A stretch of DNA of 64,000 nucleotides from an archaeon (lineage in GTDB: Archaea > Nanobdellota > Nanobdellia > SCGC-AAA011-G17 > GW2011-AR17), in the NCBI GenBank assembly GCA_018656555.1, contig JABHZQ010000020.1, positions 10,764 through 74,763 of the forward strand, in the 5' to 3' direction. Of this stretch, positions 22,097 through 26,955 are shown in pieces. The notes beneath the pieces are model-generated. The model did no database searches. It saw only the letters and a list, made by a program, of their open reading frames with translations, and was not told the origin of the DNA. The position numbers and the translations under genes are program-made. Positions within the stretch are counted from its first letter, which is position 1, and every line of letters starts with the position of its first letter.

Positions 22097-22978
22097 TTAA
22101 CAAGAAATAGTTATTGTAGCACTACTTTCACTTGTTTGTGTTCTGTGAAAAGCTTTGTTCAATGTAATCTCCACACCCTCTAAAGTTTCTGTATCTCCTT
22201 CATTGAATATCACTCCTTCTTCTCCTACATAAATAACTGCTTTTCCACTTGTTACTTCTTCTAAAGTTACATCATGACCATCATAAAGAACAGTTTCTTT
22301 TATGTAAAAGAAAACCTCTTCTCCACAATTCACTGTTTCTATAACTTGATTTGCTTCAGATTCAATATCCAATATATTTTCTACTTTAGTTGGTGCACCA
22401 GCACCATCAATACAATCAACTAACAAATTGGCGCCGTTCTGTGTTTCATCAGTTCTAACAAATGTTTTATCTAATGTAATTGTCAAATCCTCAATGGTTG
22501 CTTTTTCATTTAAATTAAGTGTTTTAGTAACTCCATTAACCTCAATGGTTGCAGAATTTGAGTCTATTTCTACAAGTTGTATTGACTCTTCAGCATATTC
22601 ATAAATTTCATCAACCATTAAAAAAAGACTTTCTGTACATTCAGACTCTACCTGCCCTATTACTTCCTCATTTAAAGCAAACTCTCCAGGTTCTAACACT
22701 TCTTGGTCTGTAGCTCCTCCCCCAGAAACTTGTTCTACAAGTTCTTGGTTAAGTATTGGTTCTCCAGCTTCTAATACTTCTTGCTGTTGATTTTGTTCTT
22801 CTGGGCTTCTAAAAAAACCAAGTAATTTTGCAAAAAAACCTTTTTCATTTTGCTCAGGTTCTACTTGATTAGAACGCTTAAAGATATCAAAAAAACCAGC
22901 ACTAACTATACTTGTTGTTAATATGGTTAGAACAAAGAAAACCATCAAAAATTTTAATCCTTTTTTCATAACAATCAT
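22097..22978 (-). CDS. secreted/anchored protein with internal duplication
   Basis: N-terminal TM; two homologous modules (about ATIEVNGVTKTLNLNEKATIEDLTITLDKTF and AVIYVGEEGVIFNEGDTETLEGVEITLNKAF), each ending in Cys. Confidence 0.55.
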   Translation of the reverse strand: MIVMKKGLKFLMVFFVLTILTTSIVSAGFFDIFKRSNQVEPEQNEKGFFAKLLGFFRSPEEQNQQQEVLEAGEPILNQELVEQVSGGGATDQEVLEPGEFALNEEVIGQVESECTESLFLMVDEIYEYAEESIQLVEIDSNSATIEVNGVTKTLNLNEKATIEDLTITLDKTFVRTDETQNGANLLVDCIDGAGAPTKVENILDIESEANQVIETVNCGEEVFFYIKETVLYDGHDVTLEEVTSGKAVIYVGEEGVIFNEGDTETLEGVEITLNKAFHRTQTSESSATITISC

Positions 22979-23070
22979 CCTCCTTTAAAAATTTAGTAAT
23001 ATTAAACAGAAACTATATATATATAATTTTCCATTGCGAAAATGTATCTAAATTATTTTAAATCTTATGG

Positions 23071-23391
23071 TTATGGCAAAGTCTCACAAGCCTTACCATC
23101 ATCGTCCCCATCCAAATAATGCACATCGTTTTCTGCTCCACCACAATATTCCATCATTTCTTGAGCCTCTGCTTGTGTTTCAAAGTCAGCACAATTGAAT
23201 GTATTAACTTTACAAGGTATAGGTGGAGTTCCGTCATCTACCTTGTCCGTAAGTAATTCTTCATTTAATTCTTTAACAATCTCCTCCTTATTGTCATTAG
23301 AACATAAGGATAATTTACCGCATTTGTTTTCAGAACATCCTGAAACAACTAATAATCCTATTAAGAACAGAATAATCAATATTTTTTTCAT
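23071..23391 (-). CDS. lipoprotein with Excalibur calcium-binding motif
   Basis: Signal plus GCS lipobox; C-terminal [15 protein letters not shown] (DxDxDGxxCE). Confidence 0.6.
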
Positions 23392-23440
23392 ATATCTAAG
23401 AAAGTTAAAGGATTTTATAAGGTTTTTGAGTAGTTGGGAT
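23392..23440 (-). promoter_or_regulatory. conserved promoter cassette (copy 1)
   Basis: Minus-sense AAACCTTATAAAATCCTTTAACTTTCTTAGATAT-ATG preceded by CCCAACTACTCA; near-identical copies at 25232-25265 and 25467-25500. Confidence 0.5.
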
Positions 23441-23457
23441 TAAAAAAGAAAAAAGAA

Positions 23458-24135
23458 TTAAATCTTTTTTTCAGCTATCTCCCCTATACCTTTTAGTAAT
23501 TCATAATCTGTAGTATAAAATGCCATATACACATTATCCTTGTAGAATTCTAATACATAGTAAGAAATTTTATTATCCCAATCATAATTTTCCCTTGTCA
23601 TTTTAAATAAGATACTTTCATCACCCAGATTAGGATTTGATAATTGAGTATAGGTATATTTGGAATTTTCTTCTTCATCTAGTACTTCTCCTGTTGCAAG
23701 CAAACCCTTTGAAGTATCTAATGTTTGAGAGATTGTTTCTTTAGGGTAGATTGAGATATATTGTTCTAGAGTAGTCATACCCTCTTTTACAAATGAAGCA
23801 TAATATCCTCCTTCCCATCCACTATTAATGGATTCTGCACTTACATCAGTTTTATCTCTTGGTCCTCTGGTAACAACTTCAAAACCTTCTGGTAAATTAT
23901 CAATATCTAGGGCTAAATCTGAAATATCCTCCCATTCACAATCTTGAGAACAAGAGTTATGACTTTCTGTTTTATCACATTTGCCATCTCCACATACAAT
24001 TTTTGGTTCTTCTTCAACTTCAACCACTTCTAAATTAGGATCTGCATCATTTGTGTCAACATTTATCTCACTTAGTTCTGTACAAGCTGAAACAGAAACA
24101 AGTAAAAGGATTAGTATTAGAATTGCTTTTTTCAT
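23458..24135 (-). CDS. secreted lipoprotein, hypothetical
   Basis: Signal LLLVSVSAC; acidic; four-Cys cluster CGDGKCD...CSQDC. Confidence 0.5.
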   Translation of the reverse strand: MKKAILILILLLVSVSACTELSEINVDTNDADPNLEVVEVEEEPKIVCGDGKCDKTESHNSCSQDCEWEDISDLALDIDNLPEGFEVVTRGPRDKTDVSAESINSGWEGGYYASFVKEGMTTLEQYISIYPKETISQTLDTSKGLLATGEVLDEEENSKYTYTQLSNPNLGDESILFKMTRENYDWDNKISYYVLEFYKDNVYMAFYTTDYELLKGIGEIAEKKI

Positions 24136-24188
24136 AGAAATAAGAAATATATTGAAATATATAAAGTTTTTGAGTTATTAATTATTTT

Positions 24189-24503
24189 TTATGTTTTCAT
24201 CCCATGATGGTGTTTCATAGCCATATTTAAAGCAATTAGCCATCCTATAATTGACCAACCAAATATTAGATTAATCAAAAATATAACCAAAGCATTGGTC
24301 TTTTTATTTTTAATTGCAAAGTAGGTCGGAAGGAAATAAAGCATAAAAGCGATAATTGCTCCAACAATAAGAAATAATGTAAGAAATAATCCTGTAGCTC
24401 CCAAAGGATAGGCTATCAGTAATGTCAAAAAGAAAATCCCAGTAATAATTCCTATAATTATTTTTGTTTTTAAGGAATATCCCTCTTTTTTCTTTTTAGC
24501 CAT
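24189..24503 (-). CDS. superinfection-immunity-like membrane protein (Imm_superinfect family)
   Basis: FLPTYFAIKNKKTNALVIFLINLIFGWSIIGWLIAL matches that family's core. Confidence 0.55.
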   Translation of the reverse strand: MAKKKKEGYSLKTKIIIGIITGIFFLTLLIAYPLGATGLFLTLFLIVGAIIAFMLYFLPTYFAIKNKKTNALVIFLINLIFGWSIIGWLIALNMAMKHHHGMKT

Positions 24504-25265: not shown

Positions 25266-25349
25266 TTACTTTAATCTTAATAAAAATAAATTGCAAATAA
25301 TAAGGTTAGAGAACCAAAAGTCCATAATAAATAATTGTAAAAATTGGTT

Positions 25350-25466
25350 CATTAAAAGGTATAATATCTTCTGTAATAAATGAATATATTGCATATATCC
25401 ACCCTCCCAATATAATCAAAGAAGATACTTTTGACCAAAAAGTCATAAGTTTATTTATAAAAGTCA
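25350..25466 (-). CDS. small hydrophobic peptide (38 aa)
   Basis: MTFINKLMTFWSKVSSLIILGGWIYAIYSFITEDIIPF; sits directly behind promoter cassette copy 3. Confidence 0.3.
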
Positions 25467-25500
25467 TAATATTTAGAAAGTTAAATGATTTTATAAGGTT
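25467..25500 (-). promoter_or_regulatory. conserved promoter cassette (copy 3)
   Basis: agaaagttaaatgattttataaggttt. Confidence 0.45.
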
Positions 25501-25507
25501 TACTTAA

Positions 25508-26002
25508 TCAACAAGGTTCAAAACCTGTCCCACCACCATGACAGACACAATAGCCATCCATACACTCTCCACCTTCCAATCCTTTAGCACTACATACATC
25601 TGCACAATTAGAAGGAGTTGGAGCAGGAGTTGGTTCTGGAGCTGGTTTAAATATATCCTCAACGATTAAACCTAATGGTATCTCTCCTGTGTAAGATAAA
25701 CCAAAAATTGTGCAAAAGAAAAGAAAAGCAGCTGCAACAGCTCCAAACTTAACAACATCCCAAATATCCTTATCCGTCCAATACCCATGTCTCCCTCTAT
25801 GTTCTTCTCTTGTCAGAATTTCTAAATTGGATTCTCTAAAATCTTTCTTTCTTCCATTCCTGTGATGGATGACATAATCTCTGAATGGTCTATCATGCAA
25901 ATGAGGAGTTCTTTTATACATCCTATAAGCTACTTTCCTGTGGATTAGCTGTCCATCATATCTATCTCTAGGATAGCCTCTATCGTCAATATAATAAGCC
26001 AT
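25508..26002 (-). CDS. HNH endonuclease domain fused to a TM helix and a C-terminal 6-Cys defensin-like domain
   Basis: HNH motif VIHHRNGRKKDFRESNLEILTREEH; TM AVAAAFLFFCTIFGL; linker PAPEPTPAPTP; C-ADV-C...GGEC...CVC...C. Confidence 0.55.
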   Translation of the reverse strand: MAYYIDDRGYPRDRYDGQLIHRKVAYRMYKRTPHLHDRPFRDYVIHHRNGRKKDFRESNLEILTREEHRGRHGYWTDKDIWDVVKFGAVAAAFLFFCTIFGLSYTGEIPLGLIVEDIFKPAPEPTPAPTPSNCADVCSAKGLEGGECMDGYCVCHGGGTGFEPC

Positions 26003-26046
26003 ATTTAATTAAATAAAAACTAAATATATATTATAAAGGTTTGGAA

Positions 26047-26955
26047 TTAGATAATTAATTTCTTTTGTTCTCTTTCTTTGTTTAGAAGCTCTTCTACTAT
26101 AGGGGGTACTGGAATATCCACTTCTTCACACCATTCATAGACATTTTTAGTTTTCTTGAACATATTACACTTATTACAAGCTAAGACTAGATTGTTATAT
26201 GTATTTGTTCCCCCTTTAGCAACAGCGACAATATGGTCTATACCTAATTTTTCATTACTTCCACAATAAACACAATTTTTATCTCTCTCCTTGATAAGCT
26301 TTTGAACTTTTACAGATATTCCTGAAGGAGATATATGTCCTCTTAATCTTAATCTTCTTTTAGAATGAGATTTGATATCAACCATCCTTCCTTTTTCTGA
26401 CTTTCTATATGCCTCTCTTAACCTAATAACTCTTGGTTGTTTTTCATATATCTTTGCTCGTTCCTTCACTTCTTTGCTCTTATTATACTCTTTTATTCTT
26501 TGAATTACTTTAGGCTTTAATCTATATCTTTTAATGTACTTATCTCTCCTTGCTTTGATTTCTGGTTGTTCTCTATAGGATTTTCTTTTAGCTTTGTACT
26601 CATCTGTTGATTGGTAGAATCTTTGATATATTTTGTTTCTGGCTTTAGTTTCAGGTCTCTGGTTATAGGCTCTTATTTTTTCTTGATTATTAGGATTAGC
26701 TCTGTAATTTCTTTGATGTTCATTCATACGTTCCCTTACTTCAGGTCTTTGGTGGTATTTTCTTGCTTTTTCTTTTACTTCTTCTCTTTGTCTATATTTT
26801 CTTCTTTTCTGTTTAAACTCTTCTGTTTGCCTTTGTTTCTTTCTTCTTACTTTTATTTCTGGTTTCTTTGCTCTTTTCTTATCATAACAAGGTTTACAGA
26901 GTCCCTTAGCATGATACTTATCTTCACTATTACATAGAATACACTCTTTAACCAT
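26047..26955 (-). CDS. HNH endonuclease with N-terminal zinc ribbon and central tandem basic repeats
   Basis: CILCNS...CKPCY; about seven (K/R)xY(x)QRPE(V/I)(K/R)ER-like repeats; C-terminal CVYCGS...GIDHIVAVAKGG...NNLVLACNKCN. Confidence 0.7.
   Translation of the reverse strand: MVKECILCNSEDKYHAKGLCKPCYDKKRAKKPEIKVRRKKQRQTEEFKQKRRKYRQREEVKEKARKYHQRPEVRERMNEHQRNYRANPNNQEKIRAYNQRPETKARNKIYQRFYQSTDEYKAKRKSYREQPEIKARRDKYIKRYRLKPKVIQRIKEYNKSKEVKERAKIYEKQPRVIRLREAYRKSEKGRMVDIKSHSKRRLRLRGHISPSGISVKVQKLIKERDKNCVYCGSNEKLGIDHIVAVAKGGTNTYNNLVLACNKCNMFKKTKNVYEWCEEVDIPVPPIVEELLNKEREQKKLII

Follow-up and report, generated by a model that had tools for sequence, protein, structure and literature searches.

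The minus-strand gene block at 22097-26955 of the window, a 64-kb stretch of archaeal chromosome, is best read as moron-like cargo that uses a portable strong or regulated promoter, as in Sulfolobales viruses. Judging from the sequence, we give this reading a probability of roughly 0.55. The host is probably a low-GC archaeon of the DPANN type. The block would be the accessory arm of a 12.6-kb integrative element, placed in a variable slot between the genes for TerL and the HNH protein and integrase. Six cargo genes appear to have their own archaeal BRE/TATA promoters, with a predicted transcription start at or beside the ATG (leaderless), and three of the genes in the block lie behind a nearly invariant cassette. 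This cassette may be a portable promoter through which newly gained cargo is expressed autonomously, and probably strongly, while the element is integrated. Its invariant spacer between TATA and start may also put the three genes under one trans-acting factor, because the spacer occupies the usual repressor-binding position of archaea. The case is a new example of known phenomena and not a new kind of system.

The element extends from 15815 to 28452 and is inserted in the 3' end of an intron-containing tRNA gene (15677-15815, plus strand; intron-aware ARAGORN). The 3' end of this gene (15801-15814, TCCCAGCCTCGGCG) is attL. It is repeated exactly over 14 nt at 28439-28452 (plus strand), and this copy is the attR core at the right end of the element. 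Synteny with a related strain gives the same borders: it breaks at 15814, and L054/L055 match again from 28454. The identity of the tRNA is uncertain, as ARAGORN calls Lys-UUU here and Ser-GGA for the ortholog in the related strain. In that strain a different 2.2-kb island occupies the same integration site. A protein identical to the integrase is found on 19 contigs, and copies of the element are 99.8-100% identical to one another. A sigma-70 gene adjoins the element.

The backbone genes were assigned with Pfam. On the plus strand they encode a 52-aa ribbon-helix-helix (RHH) protein that is NikA-like and a candidate regulator of the element (16685-16843; E=4.2e-5, 24 bits, below the cutoff of 27), a PrimPol-helicase replication protein with Prim-Pol, PriCT_1 and AAA_25 domains (17855-19588), and a TerL-like large terminase that is convergent with the cargo block (20699-22060; Terminase_6N 1.2e-11, Terminase_6C 4.7e-5). 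The minus strand carries a 302-aa cytoplasmic HNH endonuclease with about ten basic tandem repeats and no hydrophobic segment (26047-26955; HNH 2.3e-11) and a tyrosine integrase with a C-terminal zinc ribbon (27125-28369; Phage_integrase 4e-17). No capsid or portal genes were found in the element, and its proteins other than those assigned have no match in Pfam or PHROGs; it is therefore not a complete tailed-virus provirus (Caudoviricetes), which would carry portal and major capsid genes alongside TerL. The largest ORFs left unassigned are those of a secreted cargo protein (290 aa) and of a Lys-rich protein (244 aa). In L043, whose TerL is 38% identical to that of the element, a portal gene follows TerL.

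The cargo slot lies between the conserved TerL gene and the HNH and integrase genes, on the integrase strand. In one relative (L041, TerL 59% identical) the slot holds β-helix/PKD adhesin-like, He_PIG and LemA genes, and in another (L045, TerL 56% identical) it is almost without cargo. The cassette is absent from both. The position of the block and the different or much smaller cargo of these relatives agree with an earlier note on this DNA, which had taken the block to be cargo of a mobile element.

The cargo consists of seven minus-strand genes (22097-26002) for signal-peptide, lipoprotein or transmembrane (TM) proteins. The earlier note gave the gene coordinates correctly and described all products as exported. 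This holds for seven of the eight block proteins, which have N-terminal signal/lipobox or TM segments; the exception is the 302-aa HNH protein, which belongs to the element backbone and is not exported cargo. Pfam supports the Excalibur, Imm_superinfect, DUF4190 and HNH assignments made there. The gene at 23458-24135 was absent from that list, and a peptide given as 38 aa is 53 aa long.

The first gene (22097-22969/78) encodes a secreted protein of 290/293 aa with two 76-aa Cys-bounded repeats. These align without gaps at 30% identity (E=1e-10) and substantiate the internal duplication that had been proposed for a Cys-terminated protein. The gene is Shine-Dalgarno-led and not cassette-driven, with GGAGG 9 nt ahead of the ATG at 22969; the 16S 3' end carries CCUCC. 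An oligo-T terminator follows the gene at 22079-22093. The second gene (23071-23391), behind cassette copy A, encodes a 106-aa lipoprotein with an Excalibur domain (23.7 bits, cutoff 22) and the lipobox VVSGC. The third (23458-24135) encodes a 225-aa lipoprotein with the Cys motif CGDGKCD, for which family searches including Pfam gave no match; its promoter is ordinary (TATA 24158-24165), and an oligo-T terminator follows at 23442-23454. A 104-aa membrane protein (24189-24503, ordinary TATA 24526-24533) is a member of the Imm_superinfect family (PF14373), whose domain is matched over its full length (9.8e-15, 54.6 bits, cutoff 27.9); exclusion activity is only putative. Behind cassette copy B lies the gene for a 224-aa protein (24557-25231) with a DUF4190 membrane anchor (40.1, cutoff 35) and an orphan Cys-containing ectodomain, and homologs among the 5.8 billion proteins searched cover only the first ~30% of it. 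Copy C precedes the gene for the 53-aa single-TM peptide (25306-25467), which is also called in L001, L002, L005 and L057. Four cargo proteins are without any functional annotation.

The last cargo gene (25508-26002) encodes a 164-aa protein. It had been listed as the second of two HNH proteins, a description that suits the 302-aa protein; the 164-aa protein is a fusion of an HNH_3-like N-terminus (Pfam HNH_3), one TM segment, a Pro/Thr linker and a 6-Cys C-terminal domain. The spacing of the cysteines, C-x3-C-x9-C-x4-C-x-C-x9-C, resembles that of CSαβ defensins and toxins, with the usual N-terminal Cys missing. Pfam Toxin_2, Defensin_2 and Gamma-thionin each score below cutoff, and the best PDB sequence matches are defensins and toxins at E≥0.02. 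No homologs were found for alignment building. The AF2 core has pLDDT 84-86 and H-E-E-E topology; the top 24 Foldseek matches are all CSαβ peptides, yet with E≥0.9.

The 64 kb contain exactly three copies of the cassette CTTATAAAATCMTTTAACTT on the minus strand, at 23399-23421, 25240-25262 and 25475-25497, where 0.01 would be expected. This confirms the near-identical sequence reported upstream of three genes. The genes that it heads start at 23391, 25231 and 25467. Copy A (23392-23428, minus strand) comprises a BRE, a TATA box at 23414-23421 and the conserved spacer. Copy C (25468-25504, minus strand) begins 6 nt past the stop codon of the upstream gene and is identical to copy A at 24 of 25 positions from -33 to -9. 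Copy B (25232-25269, minus strand) is identical at 22 of 25 after a 1-nt shift; what had been described as a T/C substitution in the second copy is a 1-nt deletion in the spacer, with AAAAAC replacing AAACC. Pairwise promoter scores of the copies are 24, 22 and 18; the highest score in 1,035 host-host pairs is 14. A profile built from the copies gives them 29-38 bits and the next match in the window 10 bits. The module thus defined is a BRE/TATA with a spacer of ~15 nt, nearly invariant over 25 nt and extending up to 44 nt including ATGAAAAA.

A BRE/TATA is predicted 28-35 nt before the ATG in six of the seven cargo genes, and the TATA-ATG spacing is fixed among the cargo promoters. The seventh gene (22097-22969) has a more distant TATA and the Shine-Dalgarno-led start. 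The position of the TATA box fits the leaderless mRNAs that were predicted earlier, but it is not distinctive. Leaderless layout is generic, the host's usual way to start most genes and no mark of the cargo block, because in 19 of 45 host genes in the window the best TATA-like site likewise falls 28-32 nt before the ATG. The cassette BRE, AAAAACC, is also the BRE of a putative rRNA-operon promoter. The cassette lacks the G at -6 that is preferred in Sulfolobus.

One further copy was found in ~600 Gb of genomes, 241 million metagenome records and IMG/VR. It lies in L012, a conjugative-type element in another archaeal MAG, where it precedes an unrelated membrane-peptide gene (733-776; 93% identical to copy A over 44 nt, E=5e-12). 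The L012 element carries RusA and PrgI/TraG-VirB4, and its cassette stands at the head of a 2-kb block that is flanked on both sides by an 84-nt repeat of the VirB4-like gene start. The cassette is all that L012 and the window have in common, without protein similarity. All other exact 20-mer matches are in unrelated, mostly bacterial contexts, with similarity confined to the 20-mer. The known set is four copies in two elements.

The alternative that fares best is a co-regulated early/anti-defence regulon of the SIRV2 type, which we consider possible but clearly less probable than portable cargo promoters. The cassette would then be a strong promoter plus an operator for an element repressor, such as the NikA-like RHH protein, and the three genes would be expressed jointly when the element enters a cell or is induced, and not in the integrated state. 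There is precedent with the same signature, unrelated small single genes with conserved sequence around a near-identical BRE/TATA; the invariant spacer is in the repressor position; and RHH genes are present in the element and in L059, a second conjugative element in the MAG of L012. The products, however, are a lipoprotein, a TM-anchored ectodomain protein and a TM peptide rather than small cytoplasmic inhibitors, and their genes sit on the integrase arm. The cassette has no dyad symmetry, and none of its sub-motifs is present at the promoters of the RHH and integrase genes.

The cassettes could instead have arisen neutrally, through local duplication or gene conversion in the recent past, with promoters alike by copying and no shared function beyond the promoter. 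All copies lie within 2.1 kb, and promoter P23391 looks mosaic, with its upstream word as in P24503 and its downstream core as in P25231 and P25467. This word, CCAACTACTCA, had been reported as a second shared sequence. It is present at both sites (23427-23437 and 24539-24549) and in its extended form, AATC(A)CCAACTACTCA, lies directly against the BRE of each promoter (AATCCCAACTACTCA at 23427-23441; 24539-24554 ahead of the 104-aa protein gene), but it is weak alone: with one mismatch, 3 are found against 1.41 expected, which is not significant. Against copying, the cassette is a discrete unit with sharp edges (24/25 identity in the core vs 6/29 and 3/8 in the flanks), while a decaying duplication would fade gradually, and the unit recurs, 93% identical, on a different element of another genome that has no further sequence in common. 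We regard neutral duplication as unlikely.

The earlier note had also suggested a superinfection-exclusion or lysogenic-conversion module under a single regulator for the whole block. One true PF14373 member, the envelope proteins that make up all of the cargo, and the location of the block on the integrase strand would suit such a module. Yet the cassette is in only three of the eight block promoters, the Imm-like gene is not among them, and the rest have an ordinary, host-generic pattern, so that a common regulator of the block is not indicated. The clearest operator-like palindrome of the element, AGGGTATACCCT (16619-16630), sits in the promoter region of the RHH gene and is missing from the cassettes, and no regulator could be tied to the latter. 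The idea of exclusion derives from a single family name, PF14373, whose function is only putative. Such a module is improbable. It is highly improbable that the cassette represents a general promoter of the host, or a promoter of bacterial type that the sigma-70 homolog of the host recognises. Its BRE/TATA part is similar to host promoters, among them the putative rRNA promoter, and the sigma-70 gene is next to the element, but the extended form, which the earlier note had proposed to check for genome-wide occurrence, is in none of ~45 host promoters of the window, nor in 17.6 kb of the related strain, and has one true match elsewhere, while sigma-70 sites are not enriched (32 found vs 27.9±5.3 expected), no cassette has a -35/-10 match, and a -10 at the right spacing would place the transcript start within the ORF.

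Cargo behind a portable promoter has its closest counterparts in SIRV2 and other Sulfolobales viruses, whose early and anti-defence genes share a 'consensus regulatory sequence' (PMC11065993). As in those viruses, unrelated small single accessory genes, here three, have conserved sequence around a near-identical BRE/TATA core. This core may also be like that of strongly expressed host genes; in the present case the BRE is also that of the putative rRNA promoter. Unlike them, the present case involves a low-GC, probably DPANN host, an integrated element instead of a lytic virus, products that are exported or membrane proteins, three genes only, and a unit that also occurs on a conjugative-type element unrelated to this one. 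The analysis identified no Aca-like regulator, and nothing ties the candidate RHH protein to the cassette. Like phage morons and lysogenic-conversion genes, the cargo consists of extra genes with their own (predicted) promoters in a variable slot between backbone genes, with many small membrane proteins and one gene in a T4 Imm-named family (PMC3594210). It differs from morons in its predicted archaeal leaderless promoters and in its carrier, which is not a complete provirus. Two classical features of morons are weak or lacking, because strong oligo-T terminators follow only two of the eight block genes, leaving most without their own, and the GC of the block does not deviate from that of the host (0.30-0.31 vs 0.31-0.33 around it).

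The element itself is similar to phage satellites and PICI-like islands, to the archaeal pSSVx/pSSVi and to SRCEs (bioRxiv 10.1101/2025.02.15.638363). Like these it is small and integrative, encodes replication and integration functions of its own, and has only a partial virion/packaging module, here TerL and possibly a small subunit. Known archaeal satellites exploit spindle-shaped viruses and not tailed ones, and no helper virus is known for the present element. A bolder interpretation would make the cassette a portable promoter-operator module that circulates among unrelated DPANN mobile elements, TerL-bearing integrative and conjugative, and subjects cargo for remodelling the cell surface to a common trans-acting factor. 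The carrier would then parasitise a tailed archaeal virus in the manner of a satellite, as the first element to do so, and one of its cargo proteins would display a cis-defensin-like domain, the first from an archaeon. We hold this to be unlikely.

DPANN cells live attached to other cells. For this reason element-borne envelope proteins, which may remodel the envelope or exclude other elements, could alter the contact of a DPANN organism with its host or its susceptibility to other elements. To our knowledge, there has been hardly any characterisation of DPANN mobile elements, and the present case is a clear but small example. If a promoter unit is indeed common to different types of element, it would provide a handle for finding cargo and anti-defence genes in uncultivated archaea, and would extend to them the regulatory-sequence approach shown for Sulfolobales viruses.

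The promoter cassette upstream of the genes starting at 23391, 25231 and 25467 (copies A, B and C) occurs exactly three times in the window, against an expectation of 0.01, and the repeated block described in the earlier note is real. Pairwise promoter scores among the copies are 24, 22 and 18, and the maximum among 1,035 host promoter pairs is 14. A profile made from the copies has no other match above 10 bits in the window. The conserved unit is sharply bounded: copies A and C agree at 24 of 25 positions from -33 to -9, at 6 of 29 upstream and at 3 of the final 8. The second upstream word that had been proposed does not reach significance by itself, but its extended form, AATC(A)CCAACTACTCA, directly adjoins the BRE in two promoters. 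Because it abuts the BRE upstream of 23391 as it does upstream of 24503, the former promoter is a mosaic, with an upstream half resembling that of the gene starting at 24503 and a downstream half resembling those of 25231 and 25467. The terminator-like word TAATTCTTTTTT..CTTTTTT and the word AATCMCCAACT are marginally significant at most.

A sigma-70-type reading of the cassette was rejected, as such sites are not enriched. BRE/TATA-like boxes, the archaeal core promoter, are found at nearly every gene start in the window. Here the TATA is centred about 26 nt upstream, for which established knowledge of archaeal promoters predicts a transcript start at the ATG, and the cargo transcripts are probably leaderless, as had been proposed. 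This layout is nevertheless no mark of a module. The best TATA-like 8-mer begins 28–32 nt before the ATG in 19 of 45 host genes (exactly 30 nt in 12 of the 45), where random placement in this 5-nt range would give about 4. The leaderless layout is therefore this organism's usual gene start, and only the extended identity of the cassette is special.

Scans for exact 20-mers in IMG/VR, in 185,579 species-representative genomes and in 241 million metagenome records returned 34 loci, of which one, L012, a conjugative-type element locus in another archaeal MAG, is a true homolog. All the others have unrelated contexts, with similarity ending at the 20-mer; L016, L022 and L040 are bacterial by their ORFs, and L028 is unrelated. 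The single sequence that L012 has in common with the window is 44 nt long (93% identity, E=5e-12) and runs from the BRE through ATGAAAAA. Downstream of it are genes for a 68-aa TM peptide, a DUF4352 exported protein and a TM/zinc-finger protein. This 2-kb block lies between the two copies of an imperfect 84-nt direct repeat (577-660 and 2637-2720 of that locus; 76% identity). The repeat contains the promoter of a PrgI/TraG-VirB4 gene together with its first 9 codons, with the result that a truncated copy of the gene start, 11 codons long, remains. An integron-like cassette is unsupported: no attC-like structure came to notice, and it is this repeat that brackets the block and not the promoter cassette. 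The PrgI/TraG-VirB4 ATPase family of L012 is abundant in Woesearchaeota, Pacearchaeota and Nanoarchaeota. The cassette is absent from L059, the nearest VirB4 relative of L012 (83%; another relative, 76%) and a second conjugative element of the same MAG. It does not accompany DUF4190 genes elsewhere, and it is absent, at up to 5 mismatches and by nhmmer profile, from the TerL relatives L041, L045 and L043 and from distant IMG/VR TerL loci.

The cassette is carried by an integrative element of about 12.6 kb. The sequence at 28439-28452 is an exact 14-nt repeat shared with the 3' end of a tRNA that contains an intron (15677-15815). In a related strain, whose flanks are 90-92% identical, synteny is lost at precisely 15814 and regained at 28454, which places the element at 15815-28452. 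The same site in that strain holds a different 2.2-kb island with a degenerate att copy at its end. The target tRNA site is an integration hotspot, occupied by a different island in each strain. The tRNA intron is about 40 nt longer in the window than in the related strain (L054, 4742-4840), and ARAGORN assigns the tRNA as Lys-UUU in the former versus Ser-GGA in the latter. Two host genes, at 8567-9538 and 14978-15652, encode a eukaryotic-type topoisomerase IB catalytic core (Pfam 3e-13) and a free-standing LAGLIDADG_3 protein, the latter directly upstream of the tRNA.

The element encodes a 52-aa ribbon-helix-helix (RHH) protein (16685-16843), a PrimPol-helicase, TerL, the cargo, HNH and a tyrosine integrase. 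Its TerL retains Walker A GKST and Walker B IIDE motifs; its PrimPol has no relative that could be found in IMG/VR. No portal or capsid gene is recognisable among the element's proteins, and no unassigned ORF is big enough for a portal. A portal gene adjoins TerL in L043 (TerL 38% identical), and the small layout TerL, cargo, integrase is common to the closest relatives, L041 (59%; element at about 5950-18960) and L045 (56%). The carrier is possibly reduced or satellite-like, perhaps a satellite of tailed archaeal viruses; the archaeal satellites listed in one preprint include no tailed-virus satellite (bioRxiv 10.1101/2025.02.15.638363). The remaining copies of the element all show 99.8-100% identity and offer no usable population variation. 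Two contigs, L057 (ERZ4200978 NODE_1665, 12,731 bp) and L004, stop at the same position, 42 nt past attR; one of the two matches the element in length almost exactly. The shared ends suggest assembly-graph branching at the att sites, as would result from polymorphism or excision of the element in the population.

In the slot that corresponds to the cargo block, L041 has a 708-aa β-helix/PKD protein, a He_PIG protein, NUMOD3, HNH_3 and LemA, and the slot of L045 is almost empty. The region is thus variable cargo, and in neither relative is there a copy of the cassette or any other promoter that is repeated.

The genes of the block (minus strand, 22097-26955) are positioned as the earlier note gave them, and Pfam supports Excalibur, Imm_superinfect, DUF4190, HNH_3 and HNH. 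The "38-aa peptide" is in fact a 53-aa ORF, and a 225-aa lipoprotein (23458-24135) was missing from the list; its single-sequence AF2 model (pLDDT 39.7) is unusable. The likeliest start of the first gene is 22969, preceded by GGAGG. Seven of the eight proteins have signal/lipobox N-termini or TM segments, the exception being the 302-aa HNH endonuclease (26047-26955). In the latter, an N-terminal Cys cluster is separated from the HNH domain by about ten basic tandem repeats, each 13-17 aa long (Y-x-Q/K-x-P-E-x-K-x-R...). The internal duplication reported for the 290-aa protein consists of two 76-aa repeats, both cysteine-bounded (E=1e-10). PDB sequence searches with three cargo proteins gave nothing useful, and PHROGs matches were to unknown-function families only. 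Among DUF4190 homologs the membrane anchor alone is conserved and upstream regions are unrelated; the ectodomain of the DUF4190 protein is an orphan, as is the C-terminal domain of the 164-aa protein. The 164-aa protein fuses an HNH_3-like N-terminus to a membrane-anchored 6-Cys domain (SNCADVCSAKGLEGGEC...CVC; C-terminal 50 aa, 25511-25660), which has no homologs in 1.84 billion representatives. In sequence and predicted fold this domain is similar to the defensins of plants and insects and to scorpion K-channel toxins, every score being sub-significant. The CSαβ resemblance recurs in sub-threshold Pfam matches, PDB sequence matches, and AF2 with Foldseek, and is significant in none.

A complete archaeal 16S-tRNAAla-23S operon is present at 685-5338 (Rfam); the remainder of the window has a GC content of about 31%. 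Identical proteins occur in three MAGs at NCBI. Adjoining attR in the archaeal chromosome is a full-length sigma-70 homolog (regions 1.2, 2, 3 and 4; 29063-29956), conserved in the related strain. Such homologs are a known DPANN trait, especially of Woesearchaeota (PMC8204110), and the TerL relatives include Diapherotrites, Nanoarchaeota and Heimdallarchaeota MAGs. From these two lines we infer that the host is probably a DPANN archaeon.

The perfect palindrome AGGGTATACCCT (16619-16630) is next to the RHH gene, in the divergent promoter region; GGTATACC appears again at 28406-28414, in the stretch that separates the integrase start from attR. Neither occurs outside the element, and they are candidate operator or recombination-directionality sites.

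The block is cargo, as had been proposed, but a single regulon is not indicated. The invariant spacer suggests a putative bound factor; no candidate could be tied to it, and the only clear palindrome of the element belongs to the RHH and integrase promoters. An exclusion module is not indicated either, PF14373 membership being the sole hint of such a role. The cassette would act as a portable promoter that allows autonomous expression of acquired envelope genes. Cassette-driven envelope cargo is a moron-like arrangement, as in phage morons (PMC3594210), and accessory genes of Sulfolobales viruses are likewise reported to have common regulatory sequences around near-identical BRE/TATA cores (PMC11065993). 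The block is a further example of these known kinds.
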